DNA of 64,000 nucleotides from a virus (taxonomy: Duplodnaviria; Heunggongvirae; Uroviricota; Caudoviricetes). Numbering within the stretch: the first letter of the stretch is position 1; every line of letters starts with the position of its first letter. The notes under the pieces were generated by a model, which saw only the letters and a list, made by a program, of their open reading frames with translations, did not search any database and was not told the DNA's origin. The stretch spans positions 1-64,000 of the IMG/VR virus record IMGVR_UViG_3300027509_000001; one strand, written 5' to 3'. Of this stretch, positions 4,171 to 57,844 are shown one piece after another. The position numbers and the translations under genes are program-made.

Positions 4171-4515
4171 ATGATGTCAGAAGAATGGATAGAAACATCT
4201 GAAATAGAAATACCTAAGGATGGAAAAGAATATTTAACTAGGAATGGGCATCAAGGCGCCACATTTGCATTAATTAGATGGAATTCAATACATAACTATT
4301 ATCAGATTAAGGGAGAATATGTTTCTATCGGTAATGTTGGAACACAATGGTTACGTATTCCGGAATACGTTAATAAGGTTGGAATGAGCAGGCCTTTATA
4401 TAGAGATTATATCGATTTAGTAGAAGTACAACCTGGAGTTGTCGTGAATATATTGAAAGATGCTTATATACATGAATTAAATAAATATATTGATCACCTG
4501 GACCAAAAGAGTTAA
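4171..4515 (+). CDS. hypothetical protein
   Basis: 114-aa ORF. Confidence 0.45.
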   Translation: MMSEEWIETSEIEIPKDGKEYLTRNGHQGATFALIRWNSIHNYYQIKGEYVSIGNVGTQWLRIPEYVNKVGMSRPLYRDYIDLVEVQPGVVVNILKDAYIHELNKYIDHLDQKS

Positions 4516-4518
4516 ATT

Positions 4519-4806
4519 ATGATTAATACGAATGACATGAATTATGTTGAGTTTAAGCGGTATTTCTATTCCTCTAAAGCATATACATCTCTTAATATCT
4601 TTTTACGTTGTGCTATTATGCTATATGTTATTCAACTTACTTTTAAAAAGAAACATATAGGTGGATGGAAGCATTATTATAGGGTTAATCCGTATAATCC
4701 GATATCTTATGTATTTGTGGTATTATGTTCTATTTATTTGGTTTGTCTTGGAATCTTTAATACTGTTATTGAATTATTTGGACGTAATCCATTTAAATAT
4801 TCTTAG
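4519..4806 (+). CDS. hypothetical membrane protein
   Basis: 95 aa with two hydrophobic segments. Confidence 0.4.
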   Translation: MINTNDMNYVEFKRYFYSSKAYTSLNIFLRCAIMLYVIQLTFKKKHIGGWKHYYRVNPYNPISYVFVVLCSIYLVCLGIFNTVIELFGRNPFKYS

Positions 4807-4838
4807 TTTTATTTGCATTATCTGAAAATCTAGTAAAC

Positions 4839-4994
4839 ATGAAAATAGACAAAATAAAGCCAACCATAATAGTGGGCGAAGATACTTTTGACGTATTGGC
4901 TGCTTTAGATGTTCGAATTAAAGCTAAGATCGAACAGAACAAGAAACGGCTCTTTAACAGAAAGCGGACAAATCCAAAATATTTTAAAAATTGA
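4839..4994 (+). CDS. small hypothetical protein (51 aa)
   Basis: ATG at 4839 with a plausible N-terminus (MKIDKIKPTIIVGEDTFDV..); overlaps the track ORF at 4909..5124 in another frame, so only one of the two is likely real. Confidence 0.25.
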   Translation: MKIDKIKPTIIVGEDTFDVLAALDVRIKAKIEQNKKRLFNRKRTNPKYFKN

Positions 4995-5124
4995 TAACTT
5001 GAAGAAATTAATAATAACAATTGACACTGAAGCTTCTGTCCAACCAGCTTTTGCAAATACGTTGGAAAGTGATTATGATAAAGAGTTGCGAAAATTTATT
5101 GAATTATTAGAAATAAAGAAATAA
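4909..5124 (+). CDS. hypothetical protein
   Basis: 71-aa track ORF; ambiguous with the overlapping small ORF. Confidence 0.3.
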   Translation: MFELKLRSNRTRNGSLTESGQIQNILKIDNLKKLIITIDTEASVQPAFANTLESDYDKELRKFIELLEIKK

Positions 5125-5127
5125 CGT

Positions 5128-5364
5128 ATGAAAGAAAGACTTTTCAGTGCCACCATCGCCTTATTCGTTTTCATTATGATTGTCATGGCTATATGTTCTT
5201 TTCCAGATAAAGATATACCAGTATCTGTGCCTGTCTTAGATCCTGTCTATAATACCGATTCTATTAAGTCGTATGATCATGTGTTCAAGGGTTGCGAATA
5301 TATATTGTTTGTATATGGCGATAAGATGGCTGCTATTCATAAAGAAAATTGTATTAATCATTAA
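5128..5364 (+). CDS. small membrane protein, 'GCEY' family
   Basis: TM/signal segment and 'VFKGCEYILFV', paralogous to 2527..2781. Confidence 0.45.
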   Translation: MKERLFSATIALFVFIMIVMAICSFPDKDIPVSVPVLDPVYNTDSIKSYDHVFKGCEYILFVYGDKMAAIHKENCINH

Positions 5365-5375
5365 ATAAATTAAAA

Positions 5376-5537
5376 ATGAAAGAATTATATAGTGCCATGC
5401 GCGCCTTAATAATATTAATATTGATTATTAGTATTTTTTCTTCTCCAGATGAAAATAAGGATGCAGTAAGCTTGGATCCTGAAATTAAAGAGTGTATACA
5501 TGATCATGAAGAATGTTGCAAAAAAATTAAATTATGA
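5376..5537 (+). CDS. small membrane protein (53 aa)
   Basis: ATG at 5376; hydrophobic core ALIILILIISIF; stop overlaps the next start (ATGA). Confidence 0.3.
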   Translation: MKELYSAMRALIILILIISIFSSPDENKDAVSLDPEIKECIHDHEECCKKIKL

Positions 5538-19302: not shown

Positions 19303-19421
19303 TATGCAATTATTTTAGGCTATTCATTTTTTTTAATTATAATTCTAGGGAAAACCAATATGTTAATATCATTCCTAATAAATAAACTCCTAAAATTAAT
19401 GTTTCTTTCATTTTGCCAGAT

Positions 19422-20378
19422 TTAATTATTCAATATCCAAATCCCTCCTCTCCTATTAAAAAATATCTTTGTTCCTTCTTCTAACCGATTCATATCTACT
19501 ACATTTCCAAGTAATGAGATATTTAAACTGCGAGAGATTTGTGCGGCATGGGCCATAGATCCTCCCCTATCAACTAAAATACCAGAATGTTTAACCAATA
19601 ACTTTATATCTTCGAAAGTAGTGTCGCGAGTACAATAAATACTATCATTCGAATGATTGTTGATATTCCATGTTATATGTCCTTGGCATGACAAGCTATT
19701 AGCAGGCGTTCCTATTAAATCTGGTTGTGTCCAATGAATGCCTAGCTGATCTACTGGTGTTAATTTTATTTCTCTTGCCTGCAATACCCATATTATCCCG
19801 TTGATGTCAATTGCTATTTCTAATTCAATAGATTTAATATTAAGTATTTTACAGGCACTTTCTAATATTGCAGATAATTCATTTTTAAATTTTGGTAAAA
19901 TATCCTGCCCCTCTGTTTCTCCGTTCATTAGTTCTATTCCAAATTTGTCTTTCGCTAGTTTACCATAAACCTCAGACTGGCCAGTAAGTGGATTAATATT
20001 TGACACAATTCCAGAATATCCAAATTTACAATTAATCATTTCCATAATCATTACGTCACATGTAAAATCTTCCAATGGATAATCTATTACTTCTAAATAG
20101 TCTAGAGTTCTTTTAAATTTCGAAGAATCGTGGACCTTTTTAACTGCTGCCGATAAGTTATTAAATTTAACGTTTAACATCGAATTCATGCGACCTGGCG
20201 TGCTAATATTGCCAGCTGAGCGTACGGCATATAATATATTTTTATCAAGGCCTAATCCATTAATTACTGCCTTTCTGTTTAGTATTTCATCATGCGTAAC
20301 CCAATGAAATTTTGGTACAATTCCAAAGAAATTTGAATTAATTAATGTAAGTAAATTTAATATTTTCTTTCCTTTCAT
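19422..20378 (-). CDS. PEP-utilising-enzyme-family phosphotransferase (PEP synthase / rifampin-phosphotransferase-like)
   Basis: N-terminal 'FGIVPKFHWVT' and 'AVRSAGNISTPG' (PPDK_N-like); C-terminal mobile domain 'VDRGGSMAHAAQISRSLNI' with the phospho-histidine motif. Confidence 0.5.
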   Translation of the reverse strand: MKGKKILNLLTLINSNFFGIVPKFHWVTHDEILNRKAVINGLGLDKNILYAVRSAGNISTPGRMNSMLNVKFNNLSAAVKKVHDSSKFKRTLDYLEVIDYPLEDFTCDVMIMEMINCKFGYSGIVSNINPLTGQSEVYGKLAKDKFGIELMNGETEGQDILPKFKNELSAILESACKILNIKSIELEIAIDINGIIWVLQAREIKLTPVDQLGIHWTQPDLIGTPANSLSCQGHITWNINNHSNDSIYCTRDTTFEDIKLLVKHSGILVDRGGSMAHAAQISRSLNISLLGNVVDMNRLEEGTKIFFNRRGGIWILNN

Positions 20379-21070
20379 AATTCTTCCTTATTATACTCTC
20401 CATTTTCAAAGTTTGTTTTACAATCCTCGTCTATATTGTCAGTTTTGAACCACTTAAAATTAAAAACAAATGTATTTGGATCTCCTTCATTGATAAGTGA
20501 CTTTTTATATTTTTTAATGAATTCAATTTGCTTATCAGTTAGTTTGTTTTCCCGTAGAATATTATATTCTTGAGTTTTAAAATCCCAGTCACTAATTTGG
20601 AATTTAAAATCGAATTCGCAATCACTAAAATATGCAGACGTTAATATTAACCAACCCCAATATTCAATTGCTTTTGAATTCCATTCCGGAGACTTTTTAA
20701 TTAAACTCCTTTCAATTAATTCGGCATCTAAATTATAATGTCCTTCCGGTGGACAGTCATAGAAATTACCGTCGGGATCAATTGCCCCTTGCATAGTATA
20801 ACCAGTGAATTCTGTTGTAGCAAAATTAGTATTGTCATATGTAATAGCATATACATAATCGTATTTCTCTACACTTCTTCGCTTCGATATATTTTTAAGT
20901 TCAAAAGAAGCATCTTCCAATGAAAACTTTTTTGGCATGTCGCTAGTTTCTTCTTCTAAAGTAAACTCAATAGCGGGACTGTCATGATAACTAGTATAAC
21001 AGTAGCCGCGGCGACGATCGATATCTATGTCATGATTTTCATACAAATATGAAATGATTCTATTATGCAT
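20375..21070 (-). CDS. hypothetical protein (middle gene of the PEP-enzyme/MTase cassette)
   Basis: 231 aa; 4-nt overlap with the upstream gene and 8-nt overlap with the downstream gene. Confidence 0.45.
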   Translation of the reverse strand: MHNRIISYLYENHDIDIDRRRGYCYTSYHDSPAIEFTLEEETSDMPKKFSLEDASFELKNISKRRSVEKYDYVYAITYDNTNFATTEFTGYTMQGAIDPDGNFYDCPPEGHYNLDAELIERSLIKKSPEWNSKAIEYWGWLILTSAYFSDCEFDFKFQISDWDFKTQEYNILRENKLTDKQIEFIKKYKKSLINEGDPNTFVFNFKWFKTDNIDEDCKTNFENGEYNKEEL

Positions 21071-21593
21071 CTATTAATATTTTTAATACCTTTTCTCCAT
21101 CGGCTGATGTGCCTAAGTGATTTAATTCTTCGTGCTTCCATTTCTTCTTAACTCTAGGAATTTCTGTTTCGAGATCTATGTTGTAATTCCTAGGCAATCC
21201 AATATATAAATGTTCCGTTTCGGAAGTTCCTAATTCAAATGCCCCGTCAACTAATGCTGGATGGTGGCATGGTCTTGCAAGTACAATGATAAATTTTTCT
21301 GGGTTTTTAGATAACAATGCATCTAATAGATAGTTAACATCTTTACTGTTTACTTCGTAGGGGAAGACATGAAGCGAATTTAAATTATACTCATATCTCA
21401 TTTTCATGAATGCAGTATAATCCATATATGGATCAATACCAATATAATTCTTAACACCAGCTTCAAAAAGTTTTTCAGCTAAATGGCCTGTACCACAACC
21501 AACTTCTATAATTGTTCTGCCAGCTGCATAATCTACTATCCATTCTACCATTTTATTATCTGGATTAAAGAATTTTGTATTTTGTATGTACAT
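21063..21593 (-). CDS. class I SAM-dependent methyltransferase
   Basis: Motif I 'IIEVGCGTGHLAEKL' and 'GIDPYMD'. Confidence 0.6.
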   Translation of the reverse strand: MYIQNTKFFNPDNKMVEWIVDYAAGRTIIEVGCGTGHLAEKLFEAGVKNYIGIDPYMDYTAFMKMRYEYNLNSLHVFPYEVNSKDVNYLLDALLSKNPEKFIIVLARPCHHPALVDGAFELGTSETEHLYIGLPRNYNIDLETEIPRVKKKWKHEELNHLGTSADGEKVLKILIDA

Positions 21594-21596
21594 TTC

Positions 21597-22130
21597 TTAA
21601 GATTTTAGTGTTTTATGAATTCTTACTTTTTGCATTTTCCTAGACATACCAAATATGTCTTCTATTTCTCGATTAGTAAGCGTAGATTTATTTTCACTTG
21701 GTTCTCCAGTTGACTCTTTTAAAAGATTGTTTTTAAGCATAAAAGCATATTTAGCGGTTTTTTTAACATGCTTCATTTCTGTTCGATAGGCTCTCAGCAA
21801 GAGGGTTGCTGCTTCTTTAAACTCTATCCATTTAATTAGAGAGGATTTAATTATAACTTTTCTTTTCTTAGGACGATAGGTCGTAGTATCTGTATTAAAG
21901 ATCTTTGCATTTAATGCGACTAGAATATCTAGTTCAGTGTTATCGTAATATCCAAAAATGTTTTCTTGGATTGCCTCACTTTCCATTATCTCTTCAATGC
22001 TAACGTTATATTTGGCTGCCAATTTGTCTAGCAGCATCTTAGCAGTCATTTTTTCAGATTCTGTGGATCCTCTTACGACTCTAGCATAAACCTTTTTAAG
22101 GGTTTCAATGTTTTTATCTCTTGTTGTCAT
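21597..22130 (-). CDS. hypothetical protein
   Basis: 177 aa; a promoter-like motif lies 10-40 nt upstream. Confidence 0.45.
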   Translation of the reverse strand: MTTRDKNIETLKKVYARVVRGSTESEKMTAKMLLDKLAAKYNVSIEEIMESEAIQENIFGYYDNTELDILVALNAKIFNTDTTTYRPKKRKVIIKSSLIKWIEFKEAATLLLRAYRTEMKHVKKTAKYAFMLKNNLLKESTGEPSENKSTLTNREIEDIFGMSRKMQKVRIHKTLKS

Positions 22131-29667: not shown

Positions 29668-30243
29668 TTAACTAGATATAATTTTAGAAACATTGGAAAT
29701 GAATTCATTTAAAGTTCCATTATTCTTAATAAGAAATTGCCATACTTCTGGAACAACATCGTCTAATGCAGTTTCAGACGAATGATTATCTATTGGTATG
29801 TTATCTCTTTCAATTCTAATTTTGACGACTTCGTACTTGTCTGAAGATAAATAATTGTCAATAAGAAGTTCATTAGGAAATCTACAATCGGTTATTATAA
29901 TATTATTAGCGGTTGATTCTTCTATTTTTCTTACTGCAATTTTAACCCATGCATCTAAATCTATAGTATTTCTAATGCCCTCTGTTCCTAATATTTGTAA
30001 TATGTCTCTGAGCATTAATGGAGATAGATCGTGTCCAAATTTAGTTGGTAACAATTTCTGCGCTTGTGTATAGTCACCATTGACCATTTTAATACCAGTC
30101 AGAATTTCTGCCATTTGCTTTAGTGCGCCGGCAAACATTATGGTTTCTGTTTGACCTCTAAGATGTTGCTTTAAGCTATTAGCCAGAGTGTCTTTACCTG
30201 TTCCTTTTTTACCTGATATTATAAATACTTTAATTTTTTGCAT
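29668..30243 (-). CDS. dNMP kinase-like P-loop kinase (T4 gp1-like)
   Basis: N-terminal 'VFIISGKKGTGKDTLANSL'. Confidence 0.5.
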   Translation of the reverse strand: MQKIKVFIISGKKGTGKDTLANSLKQHLRGQTETIMFAGALKQMAEILTGIKMVNGDYTQAQKLLPTKFGHDLSPLMLRDILQILGTEGIRNTIDLDAWVKIAVRKIEESTANNIIITDCRFPNELLIDNYLSSDKYEVVKIRIERDNIPIDNHSSETALDDVVPEVWQFLIKNNGTLNEFISNVSKIISS

Positions 30244-31025: not shown

Positions 31026-31715
31026 TTATTTTAAGCGATTTCTTAATTTAAGTTGAAGTGTAATCCATTTCTTAGCAATGGGATTTGTAATAGACGATTC
31101 TGCAAACTTTTTAACTTCTTTCCAAAGTTTATCTAGGCCAGAACTGTTATCTCTAGTACTATTATCTATAATTGATATATTAGATCTTCCAAATAGCGAT
31201 TGAAATTTTCCAAGATTTTGCTGGGCATCATACCATGCTTGTTTTACTATATCTTCCGGAAGTGACCTTTCTCGTTTTTGGTTTCTTTCTAATGCCACTT
31301 CCAAAGAAGTATTGACAAATACCATGTAACAATCATAACCTAACTTCTTTAGATCTGCAACATGACTTTTTATTTTCGAATAATTCTTTCCAGTTCCATC
31401 TACTATAAATCCTAATCTTCCATCAATATAAGCATCATGTTGAGCATTAGCTGTTTTTTTAGCCTTTGGCCTTAAGGCCATTATTTTATCTAGCTGATCT
31501 TTGGGGAACTTTAAAGATAAGCCATGTTTTTTAATAAGCCTTTCAAAGGGCACATCTGAAGCAACTACTTTAAATCCATGACCCATTGTTGATTTATTCA
31601 GTACATATGATTTTCCTGACCCAGGTCCTCCAGCCATAAATATGGTTTTAAATATGGCCCTGTCATATACACCTTCCTTTAATATTTCTTCAATTAATAT
31701 ATCATTTAGTTTCAT
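31026..31715 (-). CDS. P-loop NTPase / kinase
   Basis: Walker A 'MAGGPGSGKSYV'. Confidence 0.45.
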   Translation of the reverse strand: MKLNDILIEEILKEGVYDRAIFKTIFMAGGPGSGKSYVLNKSTMGHGFKVVASDVPFERLIKKHGLSLKFPKDQLDKIMALRPKAKKTANAQHDAYIDGRLGFIVDGTGKNYSKIKSHVADLKKLGYDCYMVFVNTSLEVALERNQKRERSLPEDIVKQAWYDAQQNLGKFQSLFGRSNISIIDNSTRDNSSGLDKLWKEVKKFAESSITNPIAKKWITLQLKLRNRLK

Positions 31716-37232: not shown

Positions 37233-37307
37233 GCGACCGATGAAGGACTCGAACCTTCTCCTCTCCCTCCATAGGGGAGTAATGCTACACTTATACACCA
37301 CTCGATC
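37233..37307 (-). tRNA. tRNA-like gene
   Basis: T-arm GAAGG-TTCGAGT-CCTTC; clean anticodon arm CTCCC-CTATGGA-GGGAG; 6/7 acceptor pairs. Confidence 0.45.
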
Positions 37308-37532
37308 AATTAAAAACAGTATTTCCTGAAAAACTTAACTCGAATACTTGATTGCAAATATTCCCTCAACTTTACGAGCGACCACAATGTGGAATTAATG
37401 CCCTAGTTCCCTTCGTTGAACATCATATTATTGGTGACCTACTTCCTTCCTTAAAAGGTATTGAAGTACTCATAAATCAAAATTAAGTGAAAAGAGTTTA
37501 CTGTTCGGTTATTCTCTTTCATTTCTTATTCG

Positions 37533-37607
37533 TCGCGTGACGTGGACTCGAACCACGGACCTACCGGTTAAGTGACCGGCCGCTCTAGCCAACTGAGCTA
37601 CCACGCA
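37533..37607 (-). tRNA. tRNA (canonical D-arm; anticodon loop ambiguous)
   Basis: 'TAGCTCAGTTGGCTAGAGC' D-arm, T-arm CGTGG-TTCGAGT-CCACG, acceptor TGCGTGG/TCACGCG. Confidence 0.5.
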
Positions 37608-37688
37608 AAGAAACTTTCATTTCTCTTTTTGATGCTTATCGCGAAATACATTTAAAGAGGTCTGCAAACAAAAAACAAAAGTTTCTAG

Positions 37689-37779
37689 TGGTAAAGATAG
37701 GATTCGAACCTATCGACCTCCCGGATCAAGTACCTAATTAGTACCATAGCCAGTCGCTCTTCCATCTGAGCTATTCACC
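37689..37779 (-). tRNA. long-variable-arm-type tRNA (91 nt; Ser/Leu/Tyr class?)
   Basis: D-arm 'GCTCAGATGGAAGAGC', T-arm ATAGG-TTCGAAT-CCTAT; the length implies a long extra arm or an insertion. Confidence 0.45.
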
Positions 37780-38042
37780 TTATAATTTTTAAAAATTGAA
37801 CAAAATATCATTCCATATCCTTTATCTATCCATCTTTTATACGCTAATGAACCATTAATGTAAACATATAACTCATTGCCAATTTTTTCTTTATGTATCA
37901 TTTTGTTTATTGTTAAAAAGCACCGGTTTATTAAACTCTCGGAGCACTTTCCGTTTATAAAAGTACCGCTTCGATATTAGTTTTAGCTAATAAGAAGATA
38001 GGCGGTGGCCTTCGAAATGCTTATTAATGAAATAAGACTCTT

Positions 38043-38158
38043 ACATACAGGCCGCATTGGTAGGATTCGAACCTACAATAGTACCATACTTTTTCAGCCG
38101 ACGCTTACTTTCCGGATTCGAACCGTATCTCCCTTTCACAGGCGCTTTACCATTTCGC
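38043..38158 (-). tRNA. tRNA-like gene with a ~40-nt internal insertion (116 nt)
   Basis: 3' half CGCATTG..GTAGG-TTCGAAT-CCTAC-CAATGCG with its 5' acceptor partner ~110 nt away; contains a second internal TTCGAATCC box. Confidence 0.3.
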
Positions 38159-38166
38159 TACAATGC

Positions 38167-38267
38167 GATTTTTTGTGCAGACAATTGGATTCGAACCAAT
38201 GACCTCTGGGCTAATTTATAAATCTGGCCAGATTTTTGTTTTTGCCACTTGCGCTCTGCCACTGAGC
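38167..38267 (-). tRNA. tRNA-like gene with an internal insertion (101 nt)
   Basis: Acceptor GCGGACA/TGTCTGC, canonical D-arm 'TAGCTCAGTGGCAGAGC', T-arm ATTGG-TTCGAAT-CCAAT; ~30 extra nt between the D-arm and the T-arm. Confidence 0.4.
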
Positions 38268-38428
38268 TATGTCCGCTAATTTCTAGTATAAGGTTCGCAC
38301 TTATATTGGCTCCCTCAACGGAGCTATTTTCAAACTACAAGGTGTTTTCGTTGCATCTTTTGATAATAGATCTTTGCTATCTACTTAATGCAGTTACTTT
38401 GCCAAGTCTTAGTTAAATTAACTAGAAG

Positions 38429-38500
38429 TGAAATAGGCAGGATTCGAACCTGCAACCCCCCGCAAACAGGGCGCTCTACGCCATTTGGAGCTACTATTTC
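38429..38500 (-). tRNA. tRNA (possibly Ala-TGC-like; fold imperfect)
   Basis: Perfect acceptor GAAATAG/CTATTTC, D-stem GCTC/GAGC, T-arm GCAGG-TTCGAAT-CCTGC, loop region 'TTTGCGG'. Confidence 0.45.
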
Positions 38501-38513
38501 ATGATTTGCAAAA

Positions 38514-38834
38514 TTATACTAATGTTTCTATGTCTTTGACATGATAAATTTTAATTTCTTCTATACTATGAATTCCGCCATATGGTCCTGAGGGAACATA
38601 TTCGTAAAACCAATCTAATTGTTCTCGTGTACATTCTGGATAAATTTCCGATGGTACCTTTTCACTGTTATTATGAGTTGGCCACGTATGAGCATATCCT
38701 GGTTTCTTTTTCAAGGCTGCAATCGCATTGATTACTGGCATAATTAGTGTTAATGTTTTATCATCAATTTCATTCATTTCCGCCACATAATCGGCGTCAT
38801 TATGATCGCCTTTAATCCATATAAATTTCTTCAT
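38514..38834 (-). CDS. hypothetical protein (start trimmed to MKKFIWIKG)
   Basis: The track ORF's N-terminus overlaps a tRNA-like element; the internal Met avoids it. Confidence 0.4.
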   Translation of the reverse strand: MKKFIWIKGDHNDADYVAEMNEIDDKTLTLIMPVINAIAALKKKPGYAHTWPTHNNSEKVPSEIYPECTREQLDWFYEYVPSGPYGGIHSIEEIKIYHVKDIETLV

Positions 38835-38851
38835 GATTTGAATTTTTGTGG

Positions 38852-38930
38852 AAAGAGCAGGATTCGAACCTACAAAGGTCATCGCTAGCAGACGTCTTTA
38901 CGTTATTGCGTCAAACCTACTACCTACCGG
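38852..38930 (-). ncRNA. tRNA-like element (T-arm GTAGG-TTCGAAT-CCTGC; incomplete cloverleaf)
   Basis: Good T-arm and 3' acceptor 'TCTTTCC-A', but no convincing full-length 5' half. Confidence 0.25.
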
Positions 38931-39027
38931 GTTTCATTACGGATGATTCTTTTGCAACTTCCTCATTTTCACTACTAACCAGCGCGTTTACCATTTTCGC
39001 CATCTTTCCTTTTTTATAACGTCTCAG

Positions 39028-39114
39028 TGGCGAGAGTGGGACTCGAACCCACACGTCCTTACGACTCTGGGTTATGAGCCCAGCCAGGCATACCGTCAGC
39101 CTTGTATTCTCGCT
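39028..39114 (-). tRNA. long tRNA-like gene (87 nt) with candidate anticodon CAT
   Basis: T-arm GTGGG-TTCGAGT-CCCAC; anticodon arm CTGGG-CTCATAA-CCCAG; long extra arm; position 1/72 mismatch. Confidence 0.4.
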
Positions 39115-39746
39115 ATTTTAAATTTATTATCTTTAATAAGTTGTATTTCCTTTTTCTTGATTACAACTAAATTATTAACAACTTTCCATTTACATCGATC
39201 TCTTTCTCTTTCAAATCCCTTAACTTCAATGTATTTATCGTAATCAATTAAATAAAAATCTGGAAAATATAAATGCATTTTATTATTCCATTCATATTCA
39301 AATGGTTTCATTTCATTTGTCCATTTAATACCGTGTTTATCTAACCATTTTGCTACTTCTAATTCCCAACGACCTTTTAACTTAGTACCCTTATATTCGT
39401 ACGTTTTTACTCTACCCGACACATTATTTTTGCTATATGAATCTGGGTTATTAGCAACGACTTCTTTCATTTTTATGGAGTGTAACAATCTTTTTTCTTT
39501 AGTCCAAAACTTAGAATTAAATTCCTTACTCCTCTTCCTCATCTTTGCCCTAGATTCTTCAGACCAATATTGTGGTTTCCGTGACTTATATGGACTTTTT
39601 TCTTGCATTATTTTTGAATGCTGTTGCTTTCTTTCTATAGTCCACTTTTTCCGAATTATTCTATTTTCGTTTGATTTACAGAAAGTTTGATGTCCTGTTA
39701 ATTTCTTTTTATTGTCAACTTCTATATTACAGTATTTACATTTCAT
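39096..39746 (-). CDS. zinc-finger + PD-(D/E)xK-like endonuclease (homing-endonuclease-like), paralog B
   Basis: N-terminal 'CKYCNIEVDNKKKLTGHQTFC'; C-terminus nearly identical to 34645..35313; the 3' end overlaps a tRNA-like gene. Confidence 0.55.
   Translation of the reverse strand: MKCKYCNIEVDNKKKLTGHQTFCKSNENRIIRKKWTIERKQQHSKIMQEKSPYKSRKPQYWSEESRAKMRKRSKEFNSKFWTKEKRLLHSIKMKEVVANNPDSYSKNNVSGRVKTYEYKGTKLKGRWELEVAKWLDKHGIKWTNEMKPFEYEWNNKMHLYFPDFYLIDYDKYIEVKGFERERDRCKWKVVNNLVVIKKKEIQLIKDNKFKIARIQG
39150..39450. repeat. near-identical repeat, copy 2
   Basis: Nucleotides 39160-39385 match 34700-34925. Confidence 0.7.
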
Positions 39747-39790
39747 ACAGTAATATATAGTAGGCTAGGCAGTTACCACAACTTTATCTC

Positions 39791-40069
39791 TTAAAATTCT
39801 ATGTCCAACTTGCTAACTGTGTGACCCATTTTGTGGAGCTTCCATGTCAAGTCTTTAATAGAACTTAATATTTCTTTTTCTAATTTCTTTTTCTCAATAT
39901 CACTTAATTGACTGTCATTATAACTTCCAATTGAATATTTTGTTAATTTGTCTTGCCCAATAAATTTTTTAGCCATAATATCTATGTTTATTTTCGTAAA
40001 GATGTTCTTCTTGATATATAAATAACATATTTTCCGATAATTGGGGTGGAATGTCATTTTTAGACCCAA
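39791..40069 (-). CDS. hypothetical protein
   Basis: 92-aa ORF. Confidence 0.35.
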   Translation of the reverse strand: MGLKMTFHPNYRKICYLYIKKNIFTKINIDIMAKKFIGQDKLTKYSIGSYNDSQLSDIEKKKLEKEILSSIKDLTWKLHKMGHTVSKLDIEF

Positions 40070-40316
40070 CCTTACAAATTAAATTTGGAATTTGCTTCCT
40101 CCAATATGCAATTATCTCTTTAAATTCTTCTAGGCTTTTTATTGGAAAATCTATATATCCGTACTCGTCCTCTGAATAAGTCCCTCTATTTTGAACTACT
40201 CGAACGGCATCATATCTCACTAATTCATTTTTCCATTCCCACTCTATTCGTTCTAGTTCAGTTGCATGTGTGAATTTTAAATTTCCATTTCTTGTTTCTA
40301 TTATATTCATTGTCAA
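39969..40316 (-). CDS. hypothetical protein
   Basis: 115 aa; a promoter-like motif lies immediately upstream. Confidence 0.4.
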   Translation of the reverse strand: MTMNIIETRNGNLKFTHATELERIEWEWKNELVRYDAVRVVQNRGTYSEDEYGYIDFPIKSLEEFKEIIAYWRKQIPNLICKVGSKNDIPPQLSENMLFIYQEEHLYENKHRYYG

Positions 40317-40317
40317 T

Positions 40318-40347
40318 TGTTTTTAATTACAATGTAAATATACAAAT
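40318..40347 (-). promoter_or_regulatory. promoter-like motif copy
   Basis: 'ttttaattacaatgtaaatatacaaatata' is nearly identical to 22141-22170. Confidence 0.4.
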
Positions 40348-40560
40348 ATATATTTTAAAATCCAAATGACTGCCTTTAAAAGATTTGAACTTTTAAACTT
40401 CCAACCTATTGTCTCTTTTTCCAACCTATTAATGTTTTCTTCAAAAGATATCGTTGATCGGTGTGCCCACTACACTATGACAATTGGAACGTTGCAACAT
40501 CCCAGCCCCATAAATAACGCTAATTATTTGTCGGGTCTTTCATTCAAGTTTAGAGTTGTG

Positions 40561-40634
40561 TATCCCGCCCCGGGTTCGAACCGAGAATCTTTGCATAGAA
40601 AGTGCAACGGCTTAGCCAGTTTGCCCAGCGGGAC
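40561..40634 (-). tRNA. tRNA-Glu (anticodon TTC)
   Basis: Hand fold: acceptor GTCCCGC/GCGGGAT; anticodon arm TTGCA-CTTTCTA-TGCAA; T-arm CTCGG-TTCGAAC-CCGGG; 74 nt; the 5' end resembles bacterial tRNA-Glu. Confidence 0.55.
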
Positions 40635-40756
40635 ATCATTAATACCATTAACCTTTAGTTACTGGAACTGCTGGTGCAGGTACTAATTTTGTTCTGATGA
40701 ATTTTCGTTTGAACATAATTTTTACTTTTTAAAGTTGTGTTAATGATTTTATTTCG

Positions 40757-40828
40757 CTCCGAGTACAGGGCTCGAACCTGTGACAAAGACTTACAAGGTC
40801 CCCGTTTTCCCATCTAAACTAACCCGGA
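40757..40828 (-). tRNA. tRNA-Thr (anticodon TGT)
   Basis: Acceptor TCCGGGT/ACTCGGA; anticodon arm GGGAC-CTTGTAA-GTCTT; T-arm ACAGG-TTCGAGC-CCTGT; 72 nt. Confidence 0.5.
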
Positions 40829-44399: not shown

Positions 44400-44776
44400 T
44401 GGTTAATTTTTTGATTATACTCATTAAGTACCTCGTTATAATAATCAAAGGCTGGTTCGAATTCTTTGAAAGTACTTAATGTATCTCCAGATGTTATAAC
44501 CCGCCACATGTTATTATAATCTAATTCTAATCTAACTTTGCCGTCATGAGATGCATTATAAAACGGATACCATATGAAACCTTCTACGTCAATTTTCTTA
44601 AGTTTAAGATATGGGGGTTTTATTTCGAGATCTGGAATTATTGATGTTCCAAATGATAATAGACCATGCTTCATGCACACATGTATATCTACTTCACGGC
44701 CCAAAAAAACTTCAGTTTCTGATATAACAGTTAATTCATTATCTATTGGATTTTTTCTGTCGTATTCTAATTTCAT
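44396..44776 (-). CDS. hypothetical protein
   Basis: 126-aa ORF. Confidence 0.45.
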   Translation of the reverse strand: MKLEYDRKNPIDNELTVISETEVFLGREVDIHVCMKHGLLSFGTSIIPDLEIKPPYLKLKKIDVEGFIWYPFYNASHDGKVRLELDYNNMWRVITSGDTLSTFKEFEPAFDYYNEVLNEYNQKINQ

Positions 44777-45918
44777 TTCATTGCTGTTTTAATAAATGAT
44801 TTTAACTTGTTAATTGATTTGTTGCCTCGTAATGAATTAAATTTCTTAATATTAACTTCTCCCGAACCACTTAAATAGTTAGTATAATCTTCATATATAC
44901 TTTGCATGGCAACAATGGCATCGTTTGGATCTGGGTAATACCACTTTGCGTGAGGAACGATATATTTGTTTACTACCGAAGCGTCTACTGTTTTTAATTC
45001 TCCAGAAACTAAATAATTACAATGCTTCTTGGCTTTTATAAAATCCTTATGGCCAGACCAATTAGATGCTATGATTGGTTTTCCAGTAGATAAAAATTCA
45101 GCAGTATGTCTACCAAACCCTTCGCCGTGACTTAATGTAATATAGGCTTTAATATTATTATGAAGCATTAAATTTGACATTTGTTCGTATGATAATCTTC
45201 CATGTAATATATTTACTTCTGGTAGTGTGTTTATGCCATCTTGAGATAACATATTTATTCTAATATTATTCATTAGTTCCTTAATCCTAAATGCTTCTAT
45301 TTTAGAAAAAGTTCCCTGATCGGTTTTTAATAATAATGATGGTGGGTTAGGATGATTGGCAAATGCTGCGTAAAACAATTGGACTGTAAAGGGTATGTTT
45401 TTTCTGTCGTTACCCATTGTACCTGGAAGCCATGCTCCCATACATAAAAAATTAAAATCATTTTTTAATTTAAATACAGTTTTATCATTTGTTTGTACAT
45501 TGACCCTTTCAGGTAATACATGAATATTATCATTGGGATTATTAGTACTTAAAATATTTTTAGAATGCGTACTACTAACCAATATCATATCCATTGAATT
45601 CATTGGACGCCACCAGTTAGAAGGATATGTGTCAGTTTCAATGCCAGCCGTTACTCCTATATTATAGTAGGTTGACTTTGGTTTAAATTCATTAGGTACC
45701 GTACATTGAATATAGATAAACTTTTGTTCATTTGGAATCTCACTTATAATATCTACATTTTCAAATTTTGCATTATTTAAGGTTTTCCCCCATTTAGTTG
45801 GATATACACTTACATCTTCACAAAAAGCTTGAATGTCCTGTACTAAAAACCTAAACCTTTCGCCATATCCACTTTGAGAATATAACGGGCCTTCTAATAT
45901 GATAGGAAATTTAATCAT
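44773..45918 (-). CDS. glycosyltransferase (GT4/GT-B-like)
   Basis: C-terminal 'SHGEGFGRHTAEFLSTGKPIIASNWSGHKDFI' (E-X7-E-like). Confidence 0.55.
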   Translation of the reverse strand: MIKFPIILEGPLYSQSGYGERFRFLVQDIQAFCEDVSVYPTKWGKTLNNAKFENVDIISEIPNEQKFIYIQCTVPNEFKPKSTYYNIGVTAGIETDTYPSNWWRPMNSMDMILVSSTHSKNILSTNNPNDNIHVLPERVNVQTNDKTVFKLKNDFNFLCMGAWLPGTMGNDRKNIPFTVQLFYAAFANHPNPPSLLLKTDQGTFSKIEAFRIKELMNNIRINMLSQDGINTLPEVNILHGRLSYEQMSNLMLHNNIKAYITLSHGEGFGRHTAEFLSTGKPIIASNWSGHKDFIKAKKHCNYLVSGELKTVDASVVNKYIVPHAKWYYPDPNDAIVAMQSIYEDYTNYLSGSGEVNIKKFNSLRGNKSINKLKSFIKTAMK

Positions 45919-47194
45919 TTATTGATATTATTTGATATGGTTTAGCAGGTTTCCACGTCTGCAATGTGCTAAGAAGTATTGATTCAATTTTATATGCCAT
46001 TTGATTGGACGTAAATCCATTTTTTATCATTCGTCTTCGAGATTCTTTACTTAACTCTTGCCTTTGTTCAGGAGTAATGTTATATGCCCATTCTAAACCG
46101 TTTGCCACGTCTTCTACGCTGCAATAGTCTTGGTATATATATGGAGTTGCCAATGATCCAGAAAGTACTTTATGTGACGTTTCTACTTTGTATGTTGCTT
46201 CTGTAATTGACTGATCTTTTAAACCACCTGTTTGATGGGTTATTGTTGGACATCCTGCCATTAATGATTCTAAATTCGACAACCCAAATCCTTCCGAATG
46301 AGATATGTTTATACTTGCGGCTGAAATGTTATAATAATAATTTAATAGCTCAGGACTTATTTTTTCTGTACTAAAAATTATGTTACAATCATCAAATAAA
46401 TGTCGCTTAACAGTTAATAAATCGGTTCCAGCTTGAGAGACTATAGAAGTATGCATCACTAGGCATGAATTTTTTAAATATTCTTTATTTCTTCTACAGA
46501 ATACTGCATATGCTCGCATAACATCTGCTGGGCGTTTTCGGCTCATATTAACGTTATTCCAGAAAAATATTTTCTTTGCCCCATGTCTTTGGGAAAATTC
46601 ATCCTTAATTCTAAGCACTTCTTCATATTCAGAATCAGTAGAATTGATTGGATAAAAAATGTCCGGATCTACTCCATGAGGTACATATTGCAATGATGGC
46701 TGATTTTTACATTGCTTAGTTACCTCTTTATGAATTTCATCAGAAAGTTTGCTTATTGAAATTATTACATCTGAAGATTCATATAAAGGATAATTCCATT
46801 TCGGAGCTGGATAATTATCCCATATGGCGTAATAAACAATTGGAATTTTATAATGCTGATGTATTTCATATTCCATGTCGTACATCCACATCCAATATCT
46901 TGGATCTGTTATATGCAATATTGCGTCTGGTTTTTCTTGTTCTATTACAAATCGCAAGTAATCTTGATTACCATAGTCTTTAACTGGATATAATATTACA
47001 TTTGCATCTGATGTCTTTTCTTTGTAATCACTGCTAACATCTATTCTAGTATTTATATCAGTTGTGGATGCTCCAGCAATTTGTATCCAATCAAACGAAT
47101 CAACTGTTCCTTTTACTATGGAATTACCAATTATTCCTACGCCTGTAAATTTGGTTATGTTGTCTCCTAATAATAAGATCTTCTTTTTCTTCAT
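45911..47194 (-). CDS. glycosyltransferase (GT4-like)
   Basis: 'HSEGFGLSNLESLMAGCPTITHQTGGLKDQ'. Confidence 0.55.
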   Translation of the reverse strand: MKKKKILLLGDNITKFTGVGIIGNSIVKGTVDSFDWIQIAGASTTDINTRIDVSSDYKEKTSDANVILYPVKDYGNQDYLRFVIEQEKPDAILHITDPRYWMWMYDMEYEIHQHYKIPIVYYAIWDNYPAPKWNYPLYESSDVIISISKLSDEIHKEVTKQCKNQPSLQYVPHGVDPDIFYPINSTDSEYEEVLRIKDEFSQRHGAKKIFFWNNVNMSRKRPADVMRAYAVFCRRNKEYLKNSCLVMHTSIVSQAGTDLLTVKRHLFDDCNIIFSTEKISPELLNYYYNISAASINISHSEGFGLSNLESLMAGCPTITHQTGGLKDQSITEATYKVETSHKVLSGSLATPYIYQDYCSVEDVANGLEWAYNITPEQRQELSKESRRRMIKNGFTSNQMAYKIESILLSTLQTWKPAKPYQIISIND

Positions 47195-50071: not shown

Positions 50072-50522
50072 TGTCTAATAATTTGTTTCGTAATCGATTT
50101 AGTTTATATTGTTTATGAGGCATTATATCATCTATTAGATTTCCCATTTCTTCAACTTGGGATAACATAATCATGACATCTGCTAATTCTTCGCATAAAT
50201 TATCGTAAGTTTTGTTATTAGGACTTCTCCTATATTTCCTTATTGCCAATGCCAATTCTATACATTCTTCTTGAACCATATCCAATTGTTGGTCATGCCC
50301 CCATAATTCTACGGCGCCTGCGTATATTTGATCATCTGATATCTTTGTTAGTTTTTTTATTAATTCTTTATCTTTTAAAGCCCGATCAGTATAATCTCTT
50401 TCAATTGAATGGCCACATTTCCAACATGCTTTAAATCCATCTTCTGGTTTTGTTGATTTGCCTGTATCGTGGCCGCAGTTTTTGCAAGGCTGATACCATA
50501 CATCATAATCTCCTAATTTCAT
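50052..50522 (-). CDS. zinc-ribbon + MazG-like pyrophosphatase fusion
   Basis: N-terminal 'CKNCGHD..CWKCGH'; C-terminal 'VQEECIELALAI...LCEELADVMIML' (EExxE/E..D). Confidence 0.5.
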   Translation of the reverse strand: MKLGDYDVWYQPCKNCGHDTGKSTKPEDGFKACWKCGHSIERDYTDRALKDKELIKKLTKISDDQIYAGAVELWGHDQQLDMVQEECIELALAIRKYRRSPNNKTYDNLCEELADVMIMLSQVEEMGNLIDDIMPHKQYKLNRLRNKLLDNGWTFE

Positions 50523-51253
50523 ATTTCCATAATTAATTCGGTTAACAATGCCATTGCATTCAATTCCTTGTCAATGCATAAACTGTCTTGATATGCATAT
50601 TTCCCAATAACTAAAATAACTGGAGCGATTTTATTTGGAGCATATTGGTCTAGATTATTAAATAAGTAGGAATATAATTCATCAAAAGACCTAACTTTAC
50701 TATCTGCAACTATTTGTCTAATAGATTTAAATTTATCTTTTGGATTTTTATTAGATGCCAATTCGGTTACTACTTTTGAAAGATAATTACTTTCCATTCT
50801 AGTGGCTTCTGACAATGCTAGTTTACCACCAATTGAATTTGTTTGCAGTAAATTTATAACCAACCTAATGTCCGGATATCCTTGGTTTACAAGCGTAGCC
50901 AAATCTTGTTTATTGAATTCAACATTTTCTTCTTTAAGTATTTGCACCATTCGCAATGCTACTTCCTTTTTAGATGGAGGTATAACGTTAAAAGAAACAC
51001 ATCTAGATTGCAATGCTTCGATTATTTTCTCTACATAATTACATGTTAATATGAACCTACAATGCTTTGAAAAAGTTTCCATTACATTACGCAATGCCGC
51101 CTGGGCGTTGGGGGTTAGAAAATCACAATTGTGAGTTAACGTTTCATTTTGCCCGATATAGAAGTTATGATTTCCCTCTACAGATATATCGTATACGTGA
51201 CCAGTCTTATTTAATTTCTTTACGCTTTTTATTTTTATTTGTTCCAATTCCAT
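50519..51253 (-). CDS. C-intein segment fused to the C-terminal half of a gp44/RFC-like clamp-loader ATPase
   Basis: N-terminal 'GHVYDISVEGNHNFYIGQNETLTHN|C' (intein blocks F/G plus the +1 Cys), then sensor-1 'FILTCN' and 'SRC' RFC boxes. Confidence 0.65.
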   Translation of the reverse strand: MELEQIKIKSVKKLNKTGHVYDISVEGNHNFYIGQNETLTHNCDFLTPNAQAALRNVMETFSKHCRFILTCNYVEKIIEALQSRCVSFNVIPPSKKEVALRMVQILKEENVEFNKQDLATLVNQGYPDIRLVINLLQTNSIGGKLALSEATRMESNYLSKVVTELASNKNPKDKFKSIRQIVADSKVRSFDELYSYLFNNLDQYAPNKIAPVILVIGKYAYQDSLCIDKELNAMALLTELIMEI

Positions 51254-52235
51254 CGTATAATTTTTGAAGTTGTATTTTATTTTTTTCTAATTTAAAATCT
51301 GTTTCGTCAATATAATCAAGTATATTATATTCATTAACCCATATGAATTTTATATCATTGTCCTTGCAGTAATTTATGACAGATTGCATTTTATGTTTTT
51401 GCTTTTGCCATTGTGATTTTGGTTTTATTTCAAATAGTATATTCTTCTCTAGATCATGAAAATCTGCAATATATGTTCGGGACTTTCCATTTGCATCTAC
51501 ATATGGAATTCTTAATTTTTCATATAGCAAATGCTTATTTGAAGCCCAGAAACATGCCTCCCAAGAACTTCTAAATTTAAATTCGTTACCATCGAAATAT
51601 ATAATAGATGTCCAATGCGTCCAACTATTGCTAATAGGAGGAAAGAATTCTCCGTTTGCAATTTTCCTTTTCATTGTAATGCTATTTTTCAAAGCCACTT
51701 GCTTTAAATTTTCCTGCCCTTTTTCGGTTTTGTAAAATTCAGTCATTTTAATTGAGTTCTTTTTTCCGATCCGTTTAGCTACTTTGTTGCCTTCAGATGT
51801 TTTATAAAAATTCAATTTTGCTTTAGATATCTTATCTTTAGTTTCTTCACTTTGTGGTTTTCTGTTCCATGTTCGATTTTTAACACACTCTTTGCAATAT
51901 TTTCCTGTGAATCTACCTTCTCGATTACAAGAACATTTTTTAATAGTACCATGTTTTTTAACAAGTATTTTACATTCCTTACAGTATTTTGAATTCCAAG
52001 CATTTGCAGTATACCCGTTATTGCAATCTTCGCATATGTGCTCTTTGAAGTATACTACTCCGCCAAAATTATTTCTTTTTGCTGCAATTGACAATTTTCT
52101 TTTATATTCAAAAACTAGTTCATCGTATTGAACTTTACTAATGATTCCTGCCGCTAGTTTTTCTTTCCATATTACAAACGGTGATGTATTTTTTACCTGT
52201 ACTTTCATGTTTAATATATAGTTCTGCTTGAGCAA
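51207..52235 (-). CDS. free-standing homing-endonuclease-like gene between the intein halves
   Basis: Multiple zinc ribbons (CEDC..CKEC..CSC..CKEC), NUMOD-like K-rich repeats, C-terminal 'IADFHDLEKNILFEIKPK' (PD-(D/E)xK-like). Starts at TTG, in frame, 2 codons after the TAATAA that closes the N-intein ORF. Confidence 0.5.
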   Translation of the reverse strand: MLKQNYILNMKVQVKNTSPFVIWKEKLAAGIISKVQYDELVFEYKRKLSIAAKRNNFGGVVYFKEHICEDCNNGYTANAWNSKYCKECKILVKKHGTIKKCSCNREGRFTGKYCKECVKNRTWNRKPQSEETKDKISKAKLNFYKTSEGNKVAKRIGKKNSIKMTEFYKTEKGQENLKQVALKNSITMKRKIANGEFFPPISNSWTHWTSIIYFDGNEFKFRSSWEACFWASNKHLLYEKLRIPYVDANGKSRTYIADFHDLEKNILFEIKPKSQWQKQKHKMQSVINYCKDNDIKFIWVNEYNILDYIDETDFKLEKNKIQLQKLYDGIGTNKNKKRKEIK

Positions 52236-52241
52236 AACTTA

Positions 52242-52877
52242 TTAAATAATCGGTGTACCTGGAGAAATTATTGATTCATACGTATGCAATTCATCGGTCT
52301 TTACAACCTTTATTTCATTGTTCTCATCGTAAACATGCCATTTATGCTCAGCAGTACATTTCACTGTTTCTCCATTTTCTAATTCTATTTCCCATAATTC
52401 TTGTTCTCCTTTATCCCAAAAATAAAATGGTTGCCATTCGATTTGATTTGTTTTGAAGTTGTAACTTTTTACTAAGTCAGTTTCTTCTATTAATTCTTCA
52501 ATTGGAACCTTTATATAATTTCCCTCTCTGAGAATACTTACTAGCGTCCCTTCTAATAAACACTCATCAAGAATTATAACTTTCCAGTCATTAAATCCTA
52601 CATTCGAAGCAAATGTTTTTACCTTATTTCTAATAACTTCTACACTATTTTCATCTGAAGCATTAATATAAATGTGATCGCAATTAATTTCTGATACTAA
52701 AATTTTTGCGAGGGATGTTTTTCCAGTCCCAGAACTTGCATGTAGCAATAAATGTGGCATGTCATTATTATCAATATAATTTGCTATGGCCTTTTTAATA
52801 TCTTCGTTTCCAATATATTCAGACATTGTTTTTGGACGATAGCGTTCCGCCCATAACGAATTAGTTAATTTGTTCAT
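52242..52877 (-). CDS. N-terminal half of a gp44/RFC-like clamp-loader ATPase fused to an N-intein segment
   Basis: RFC box 'WAERYRPKT', Walker A 'ASSGTGKTS', Walker B 'VIILDE', then 'CLLEGTLVSIL' (intein block A) and 'CTAEHKWH' (block B), ending in TAATAA. Confidence 0.65.
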   Translation of the reverse strand: MNKLTNSLWAERYRPKTMSEYIGNEDIKKAIANYIDNNDMPHLLLHASSGTGKTSLAKILVSEINCDHIYINASDENSVEVIRNKVKTFASNVGFNDWKVIILDECLLEGTLVSILREGNYIKVPIEELIEETDLVKSYNFKTNQIEWQPFYFWDKGEQELWEIELENGETVKCTAEHKWHVYDENNEIKVVKTDELHTYESIISPGTPII

Positions 52878-56929: not shown

Positions 56930-57844
56930 TTATTTTTTAAAATTGAAAAATTTATTAATTAATGCATTGAATTCTATATTACCAAAATCTAATGCATCCC
57001 AATAATTTTGGATTTTGTTTTCTAATCTGCTTTCAAATATTCTAACTCGGTCTGCATATGTTTCCATATATTCTAATATTTCTGGAGGATTGCTTTCTCT
57101 AGATATTGCAAACGAATCAAACTTCCATGGATTATCTATTAGATATGCCCACATAATTTTGTCTCCTTCTTTTATAGGAGGCATCGATGCTATACCTAAT
57201 TTATCCATTAAAGCATTGTGATTCAAAGCTGCTTTATAATGAACTGGCGTTCTTTTTTTAAACTCTCCAAATTTACCAGTTTTCCATTTGTCTAGGCTGT
57301 TAACTCCTACTGGTATTAATATGTCTGATAGCTTTTGTGTTGGCAATGATTGTTTGAAATCTCTTACCATTTCGTTTAATTCCTCTTTCGAAGAGTCATG
57401 TAATATACAATCTAATATCTTTTCAACAAATGATTTAAATTTTAATGGAAAATCTGCCCTGACTGAATCCAATCCCTTTACATCCATTTTGTTTTTAGCT
57501 ACACCTTCTTCGTCTACAATCCATTGAGCATAACGTTTTTTAGCTATCCATAATGCTCTTTTTGCAATTAATTCTTGCTTTATATCCCACCCGTGATCTG
57601 TTACATTATGCAACTTTAAAGCATATGTATCGTAACTTTTATTAATGTAAGATTGGACATCATTGATTATTGGTTTTGATAATGCAATAATTTCTTCATC
57701 AGTATAGTTATCCATAGGTCCATGGCGATGCACAAATAATGGTTCTATTGGTTCGAATATGCTGTCCGTATCAGTATATATACAAAAATTATAATATGTA
57801 TTATGTTGATTATCAGCTAGTTGTGTTATATTTTTAATTTTCAT
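56930..57844 (-). CDS. family-B DNA polymerase, C-terminal part (43B-like)
   Basis: Motif C 'IYTDTDS' (YGDTDS) and the 'KKRYA' KKRY motif. Confidence 0.7.
   Translation of the reverse strand: MKIKNITQLADNQHNTYYNFCIYTDTDSIFEPIEPLFVHRHGPMDNYTDEEIIALSKPIINDVQSYINKSYDTYALKLHNVTDHGWDIKQELIAKRALWIAKKRYAQWIVDEEGVAKNKMDVKGLDSVRADFPLKFKSFVEKILDCILHDSSKEELNEMVRDFKQSLPTQKLSDILIPVGVNSLDKWKTGKFGEFKKRTPVHYKAALNHNALMDKLGIASMPPIKEGDKIMWAYLIDNPWKFDSFAISRESNPPEILEYMETYADRVRIFESRLENKIQNYWDALDFGNIEFNALINKFFNFKK

Follow-up and report, generated by a model that had tools for sequence, protein, structure and literature searches.

A candidate ATP-dependent dikinase cassette in divergent phages, built from a minimal PPDK-like protein, an undescribed partner and an accessory methyltransferase

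Here we describe a cassette of three consecutive genes on the minus strand of a 64,000-nucleotide (nt) stretch of caudoviricete DNA (positions 1 to 64,000 of the IMG/VR record IMGVR_UViG_3300027509_000001), hereafter the window. The genes encode, in order of transcription, a 176-amino-acid (aa) class I S-adenosylmethionine (SAM) methyltransferase (21063-21593), a 231-aa protein referred to here as the partner (20375-21070), and a 318-aa protein resembling part of pyruvate phosphate dikinase (PPDK), referred to as mini-PPDK (19422-20378). A sequence-only reading of this DNA had proposed that the three open reading frames (ORFs) form a translationally coupled functional unit, and its coordinates, strand and overlaps were all confirmed: the methyltransferase/partner junction is ATGCATAA, an 8-nt overlap at 21063-21070, and the partner/mini-PPDK junction is ATGA, a 4-nt overlap at 20375-20378. 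However, when genes are called greedily across the window, overlaps occur in 40 of the 114 same-strand neighbouring pairs (about 35%; 17 of them of 4 nt and 6 of 8 nt). Since overlaps are routine in this genome they are uninformative by themselves, and we rejected them as proof of translational coupling, for which they had been the sole basis. The claim for a cassette therefore rests on its conservation across genomes. A promoter and terminator scan around the three genes gave chance-level signals only. The ORF at 21597-22130, just 3 nt upstream of the methyltransferase, does not accompany the cassette in other loci, and a 24-codon hydrophobic candidate ORF (MKETLILGVYLLGMILTYWFSLEL) lies on the minus strand at 19337-19411, inside the 149-nt gap directly downstream of mini-PPDK.

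The 318-aa protein is composed of an ATP-grasp (AMP/ATP-binding) domain at aa 1-225 (19704-20378, minus strand) and a phospho-histidine swivel (mobile) domain at aa 230-318 (19425-19691, minus strand), matching the Pfam families PF01326 (PPDK_N, E 1.7e-12) and PF00391 (PEP-utilizers mobile domain, E 1.2e-8), respectively. The phosphocarrier His277 (codon CAT at 19548-19550) lies in the motif GGSMAHAA, the counterpart of GGMTSHAA in PPDK, and within the stretch GGSMAHAAQISRSL (aa 272-285) that had been quoted as the mark of a phospho-histidine mobile domain; the PF00391 match and the invariance of the histidine bear out that call. In a 24-sequence alignment, K5, R53, E187, Q200, R202 and H277 do not vary, S54 and E185 vary hardly at all, and those of the ATP-grasp domain align with the PPDK motifs GGKGANL, SVRSG, MDIEF and LQCR (the ATP-grasp columns were read from alignments A1, A2 and A6). 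All key residues are thus retained, and the loss of the catalytic histidine or of ATP-grasp residues, which would have spoken against such an enzyme, was not seen. The family profile matches PPDK structures (E 2e-62) in three blocks, family positions 2-82 corresponding to PPDK 18-116, 82-237 to 203-358, and 226-321 to 385-485; the skipped parts of PPDK are thus ~117-202, which is a helical insert within the nucleotide-binding domain, and all that follows ~485. The AlphaFold2 model of the 318-aa protein is confident (mean predicted local distance difference test score, pLDDT, 92; predicted template modelling score, pTM, 0.89); its best Foldseek matches are the C. symbiosum PPDK structures 1kbl and 1jde (template modelling score 0.78-0.82, normalised to the query), and it superposes on PPDK residues ~1-500, which hold the nucleotide-binding and central domains.

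The earlier reading had assigned a phosphoenolpyruvate (PEP)/pyruvate-binding N-domain to this protein. This assignment has to be corrected, as PF01326 describes the AMP/ATP-binding ATP-grasp domain and no PEP/pyruvate-binding domain. The true PEP/pyruvate TIM barrel (PF02896) has no Pfam match in the 318-aa protein, and the PPDK profile alignment ends at ~485. Nor does the chain, with 41 residues remaining after H277, contain a rifampin-binding domain or any other third, acceptor-binding domain. Because the TIM barrel is absent, the protein is predicted to be ATP-driven, not PEP-utilising, and pyruvate and PEP cannot be interconverted by it. That the gene is an auxiliary metabolic PPDK or PEP synthase, or an antibiotic resistance kinase of the rifampin phosphotransferase (RPH) type, is effectively refuted by this domain content. 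RPH does use the same ATP-grasp plus swivel logic, and cultured-phage homologues are labelled 'pyruvate phosphate dikinase' or 'kinase' (PMC12038007), but the scores against the NCBIfam PPDK and PEP synthase equivalogs (33-47 bits) fall far below all cut-offs of 456-843 (e.g., 47.5 vs 843), and the rifampin-binding domain is missing. It was rightly noticed before that 318 aa is far shorter than PEP synthase or PPDK, which measure about 790-880 aa. The labels 'PPDK' or 'PEP-utilising enzyme' on such phage genes are misleading, since these phage proteins cannot use PEP or pyruvate. PADLOC returned no match for the 318-aa protein. Judged by its sequence, the protein is a catalytically intact engine made of an ATP-grasp domain and a swivelling histidine domain, with no acceptor domain of its own.

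When 1.84 billion representatives were searched exhaustively with HMMER, 312 matches at E <= 1e-3 were returned, and 32 of the best 150 are compact (<=400 aa) proteins with the same end-to-end layout; the exhaustive search was needed, as a word-indexed search retrieved mini-PPDK itself only and, when started from a 16-sequence alignment, three proteins. PPDK-like genes are present in 14 records of cultured phages, all uncharacterised, including Bacillus phage G and phages of Vibrio, Stenotrophomonas and Rhizobium. Within the cassette only mini-PPDK has a match in cultured phages, the distant 'kinase' of phage G being the sole hit. This protein, gp139 (365 aa; PHROG 18609 'kinase'), shares the two-domain layout and 26% identity with mini-PPDK, but neither a partner nor a methyltransferase gene lies beside it.

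The association of mini-PPDK with the partner recurs well beyond the window. In seven divergent phage lineages a partner homologue adjoins mini-PPDK or lies <=1.2 kb from it: the two genes are adjacent, and mostly overlapping, in the window, L002/L003, L004, L032/L033, L037/L038 and L042, and a partner and a mini-PPDK-type gene stand 1.2 kb apart in L034/L035, identities being just 25-53% throughout. The full trio in the order methyltransferase, partner, mini-PPDK is found with overlaps in the window, which is part of a 188.5-kb contig, and in two IMG/VR contigs, one of 163 kb (L002/L003; 39/35/31% identity); the same trio is present in short ENA contigs (L037/L038; 62/53/48% identity) and, followed by RtcB, in a 12-kb contig binned with a cyanobacterial metagenome-assembled genome (MAG; L042). 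In the ENA contigs L032/L033 the partner adjoins a 339-aa mini-PPDK with no methyltransferase, and in the 2.1-kb contig L004 the C-terminus of a partner is encoded directly upstream of mini-PPDK. Within 5 kb, the Logan contigs L034/L035 encode a methyltransferase homologue, a partner homologue of 373 aa and a PPDK-like protein of 601 aa. An all-against-all ORF comparison showed that the three cassette genes are the only ones common to the loci, the sole further match being a weak one that links a metallophosphoesterase of L042 to a gene located 20 kb from the cassette in the window, and the cassette can therefore be regarded as a self-contained module moving between genomic positions. The proposal of a three-gene functional unit is strengthened by this comparison, in which the same order returned in several very divergent phage contigs and a failure of the genes to co-occur was not observed.

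With regard to the scope of these searches, locus scans worked with the sub-alignments A2, A7 and A9, the alignments A1 and A5 being too divergent for this purpose. Most of the metagenome loci (L005-L030) proved to be ordinary long PEP synthase- or PPDK-like genes with neither partner nor methyltransferase, and were set aside. Scanning 185,579 species genomes gave just two MAG contigs, one with the trio and one prophage-like; all contigs in which the module was seen are of phage or phage-like type. The ORF upstream of the L031 mini-PPDK and the neighbours of phage G gp139 were considered as candidates and are not partner homologues. Some further features of the loci are worth recording. In L002 the trio is two genes away from a T4-type major capsid gene. 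The phage contig L034 (14016-17122), which carries a fused form of the module, also encodes a TonB-dependent receptor, a PnuC-type nicotinamide mononucleotide transporter and a NadR-like protein, and an anthrax-lethal-factor-like (ATLF) protein is encoded between its partner and fused dikinase genes. In L041, a 177-kb viral contig, a short partner-core-like match runs across the start of a 139-aa ORF (4935-5471) among aminoacyl-tRNA-synthetase-like genes, which may mean a remnant or a wrongly called start.

The partner is composed of a conserved core at aa 90-215 (20426-20803, minus strand), delimited with alignments A4 and A5 and a 14-sequence core alignment, and a variable N-terminal alpha+beta domain at aa 1-89 (20804-21070, minus strand), delimited with A4 and the secondary structure of the model. 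The N-terminal domain is missing or replaced in some relatives, and core-only relatives of 137 aa (P0160) and 163 aa (in L042) exist. Among the metagenomic relatives (n=7) the conserved part is the C-terminal ~130 aa. In the 14-sequence core alignment, which includes fused forms, the residues G101, C106 (codon at 20753-20755), H111 (20738-20740), L118, W140 and Q181 are invariant throughout the stand-alone, fused and solo forms. The partner has no match in Pfam, PHROGs, NCBIfam, PADLOC or PDB, nor in any of 50,697 GenBank phage records. A fold search with its model gave weak generic alpha+beta matches only (tail-terminator-like and flavin-reductase-like, Z <= 6.7), and in BFVD, where no relative was recognised, a weak match to a protein of Bacillus phage SP-15 (E 0.037) was obtained. 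It contains no swivel domain.

The strongest support for a joint function of the two proteins comes from gene fusions. A hidden Markov model (HMM) of the partner family finds the core in the N-terminal halves of three independent proteins of 580-589 aa, P0064 (E 6e-10), P0021 (E 3e-9) and P0016 (E 4e-8), whose C-terminal halves are the mini-PPDK module, and the 601-aa ORF of L034 has the same architecture. The domain order in the fusions is that of the genes in the cassette, partner first and mini-PPDK second. From this we infer that the partner probably works in physical contact with the dikinase. The 231-aa protein had previously been listed as an unknown and treated as unrelated to its neighbours; its linkage to the dikinase in seven lineages and its fusion in some relatives instead point to an obligate partner, and comparative evidence shows it as such. 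The compact module is also found with another, unrelated C-terminal extension in proteins of 600-900 aa (P0032, P0045, P0057 and P0063, among others). These extensions are about 280-540 aa long and mutually homologous, with no Pfam match and, for the representative P0032, no PDB match either; parts of them match separate 'hypothetical proteins' in the Vibrio phages LV6 and KarBoss. Because the compact module carries such different extensions, its third domains appear to be exchangeable, which would fit a third domain that determines acceptor specificity.

The identification of the 176-aa protein as a SAM-methyltransferase in the sequence-only reading is sustained by a Rossmann-type motif I (VGCGTG, aa 31-36) followed by an acidic motif II, as in class I enzymes, and by weak class I Pfam matches, namely Methyltransf_11 (22.8 bits vs a cut-off of 21.2) and Methyltransf_23/25, several related models falling just below the Pfam cut-off. 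PADLOC mad2 also matches weakly (3e-8). The family profile aligns with the PDB methyltransferases PRMT, CmoB and KsgA over positions 24-85, which cover the SAM-binding motifs only. The 176-aa protein contains neither a DPPY-type [DNS]PP[YFW] motif nor a C5-methyltransferase motif, and the family has an invariant R107-P108-(C/S)109-H110 in place of the former. No match was found in cultured-phage records. A methyltransferase accompanies the partner and mini-PPDK pair in five of the six lineages with assessable upstream sequence; its gene directly precedes that of the partner in L002/L003, L037/L038 and L042 and lies one gene farther upstream in L034/L035. We therefore regard it as a frequent but dispensable accessory.

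The sequence-only reading had suggested three roles for the cassette: nucleotide or DNA modification, an antibiotic-style phosphotransferase, and anti-defence. The location of the window cassette among genes for an ATP-dependent ligase, a Dda-like helicase, an exonuclease, a deoxynucleoside monophosphate (dNMP) kinase, a family-B DNA polymerase and a clamp loader might suggest the first of these, in which the dikinase would place a phosphate on a nucleobase substituent or sugar hydroxyl of DNA or of a nucleotide and the methyltransferase would complete the modification. Moreover, N6/N4 DNA methyltransferases are encoded ~1.4 kb upstream in L032, and kinase-activated hypermodification of thymidine has a precedent in phages, the kinase of that pathway being of the P-loop type. 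The genomic context, however, is not constant, the cassette lying near a major capsid gene in L002, RtcB in L042 and NAD-salvage genes in L034. Furthermore, the partner family is acidic (isoelectric point 4.5-5.7), unlike a DNA binder, no hydroxymethylase is linked to the module, and the methyltransferase has generic SAM-binding motifs instead of those of DNA methyltransferases, so we consider this explanation unlikely. Still less probable is a role as an accessory in RNA end-healing and sealing. The pairing of a kinase and a methyltransferase resembles that of bacterial Pnkp and Hen1, and it could be imagined that the dikinase phosphorylates an RNA end which the methyltransferase then 2'-O-methylates, shielding repaired tRNA from the anticodon nucleases of the host. 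The trio of L042 is directly followed by the RtcB RNA ligase and a metallophosphoesterase, and tRNAs and a metallophosphoesterase are encoded elsewhere in the window phage. RtcB, however, is a neighbour at one locus only, the partner is acidic, and neither Hen1 nor the P-loop polynucleotide kinases show similarity to the cassette proteins, which makes this role very improbable.

We favour the view, to which we give a probability of roughly 55%, that the cassette encodes a phage-borne, two-component and sometimes fused ATP-dependent dikinase together with an accessory SAM methyltransferase. The domain content, the intact catalytic residues, the lack of a PEP/pyruvate domain, the linkage and the fusion of the core to the dikinase are observed; the chemistry, the physical complex, the partner as acceptor site and the action of the methyltransferase on the same substrate are what we infer from them. 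In this scheme, the ATP-grasp domain of the 318-aa protein would bind ATP and a phosphoryl group would pass from it to His277 of the swivel domain, with release of AMP and phosphate or pyrophosphate, as in PPDK, PEP synthase and rifampin phosphotransferase. The swivel domain would then bring the phosphoryl group to a site supplied by the 231-aa partner, whose core with Cys106, His111, Trp140 and Gln181 may stand in for the TIM barrel of PPDK or the rifampin-binding domain of RPH. The substrate of the methyltransferase may be that same target or the product of the phosphorylation. Our best guess is that the acceptor is a small molecule or protein specific to the host or to infection, not phage DNA, because the module is small, patchy, phage-restricted and shifting in genomic position. 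It is conceivable, although rather doubtful, that the module serves counter-defence or host takeover, the kinase phosphorylating a host immune signal, metabolite or protein and the methyltransferase methylating the product, for instance by capping the phosphate as a methyl ester so that it could not be removed. If so, the cassette would hold a new acceptor-domain fold and a new phage way of neutralising a host molecule.

Several findings weigh against the two-component dikinase. The partner displays no recognisable fold or ligand-binding signature, and consequently its role as acceptor site is deduced from linkage and fusion. The linkage sample is small, with seven lineages and several of them on short contigs, and the partner was not detected beside the distant mini-PPDKs of phage G (gp139) and L031 (P0051). 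L043, from a Salinibacterium MAG, holds in a prophage-like stretch (4263-5273) a 336-aa ORF with the partner core motif (GWLSPEGKFYPCGYSEH...GWVRL); an integrase follows downstream and no PPDK-like gene lies within 5 kb, and the partner core thus exists outside the dikinase context too. Finally, the methyltransferase was not found in L032/L033, which indicates that it is non-essential to the core function.

Comparison with known systems lends the scheme some context. Mini-PPDK shares with PPDK, PEP synthase and RPH the ATP-grasp domain, the swivelling phospho-histidine domain and the catalytic residues, and differs from them in its length, in lacking the helical insert and the third domain, and in having its candidate acceptor module on a separate protein of an undescribed fold. 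One precedent is VadK (Rv1127c) of M. tuberculosis, a protein of about 490 aa whose gene is chromosomal in actinobacteria. This truncated PPDK contains the nucleotide-binding and histidine domains only and autophosphorylates on histidine, and its small operonic partner Rv1126c improves its solubility and co-purifies with it until removed by a 2 M NaCl wash (PMC13400623). Like VadK, mini-PPDK has no PEP/pyruvate domain and is encoded with a small partner; its reduction goes further than that of VadK, its clade is restricted to phages, and no methyltransferase has been described for VadK. A second precedent, the dikinase HpeHI, is split in two chains with the acceptor site on another chain than the ATP site, the ATP-grasp domain standing alone in HpeI and the swivel being joined to the substrate-binding domain in HpeH (PMC12167813). 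The phage dikinase is likewise proposed to be divided over two polypeptides, yet the division is different, since its ATP-grasp and swivel domains share one chain, the candidate acceptor module stands alone, and the 231-aa partner is unrelated to the RPH-like substrate domain.

The main rival of the dikinase scheme is a phosphorelay in which mini-PPDK would be an ATP-driven analogue of Enzyme I and the partner an HPr- or EIIB-like phosphocarrier, phosphorylated on His111 or Cys106, that hands its phosphoryl group to a host or phage protein or regulates it. In HPr the phospho-histidine sits at the N-terminal end of a helix. The partner has an invariant Cys-x4-His whose histidine, H111, is likewise at the N-terminal end of a predicted helix, the acidity of the family would suit such a carrier, and fusion to the kinase would be compatible with a carrier domain. 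Moreover, the mini-PPDK family profile matches the histidine domain of Enzyme I of the PEP-dependent phosphotransferase system (PTS; E 1.5e-10), and VadK has been proposed to be a regulatory histidine kinase acting via protein partners (PMC13400623). On the other hand, neither HPr nor EIIA nor EIIB resembles the partner model in fold, the module comes with no linked downstream acceptor, and a relay offers no evident task for the accompanying methyltransferase. Of the features of an Enzyme I/HPr pair the histidine domain alone is held in common, the PEP-binding TIM barrel, the HPr-binding helical subdomain and the HPr fold being absent. We rate a phosphorelay as clearly less probable than the dikinase scheme.

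The superfamily to which mini-PPDK belongs is well known; what is new is the minimal 318-aa form, its pairing or fusion with an undescribed domain, and the conserved association with a dedicated methyltransferase in a portable module. In the literature searched, no description of a pairing of mini-PPDK, partner and methyltransferase was found, and a survey of NAD/ADP-ribose functions in viruses names ATP-grasp and swivel domains in the context of ligases only. The known acceptors of dikinases with a swivelling histidine are pyruvate, water/pyruvate, glucans, rifampin and phenolics. Naming the acceptor of the phage enzyme would add a new reaction to this group and give an orphan protein family a function, and it could uncover an unrecognised phage strategy of host-molecule modification.

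The window itself, with a G+C content of about 31%, covers the part of a T4-like myovirus genome devoted to replication and nucleotide metabolism, and its proteins trace to the 188.5-kb contig. The closest cultured relative by DNA polymerase is Microcystis phage Mel-JY01 (41% identity), and no nucleotide-level match of the window to any GenBank phage was found. The family-B DNA polymerase gene is split on the minus strand into an N-terminal part at 60510-62336 and a C-terminal part at 56930-57844, between which lie a homing-endonuclease ORF (59467-60474) and a second ORF (57834-58673) on the same strand. The gp44-like large subunit of the clamp loader (50519-52877, minus strand) is interrupted by an intein and distributed over three ORFs, encoding the AAA domain with the N-terminal part of the intein (52242-52877), an endonuclease-like protein (51207-52235), and the C-terminal part of the intein with the Gp44 lid (50519-51253); the intein could be intact with frame changes, or degraded. 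ARAGORN predicts a cluster of five tRNA genes at 37233-40828 (minus strand); the anticodon of the tRNA-His among them, ATG, is unusual, and two of the predictions have non-standard anticodon loops. Around position 12000 both GC and AT skew flip sign, and the coding strand turns there from plus to minus. Two overlapping glycosyltransferase genes of the PHROG 2170 type are arranged in tandem at 44773-47194 (minus strand), and closer to the cassette than these are a zeta-toxin-like kinase (31026-31715) and the dNMP kinase (29668-30243).

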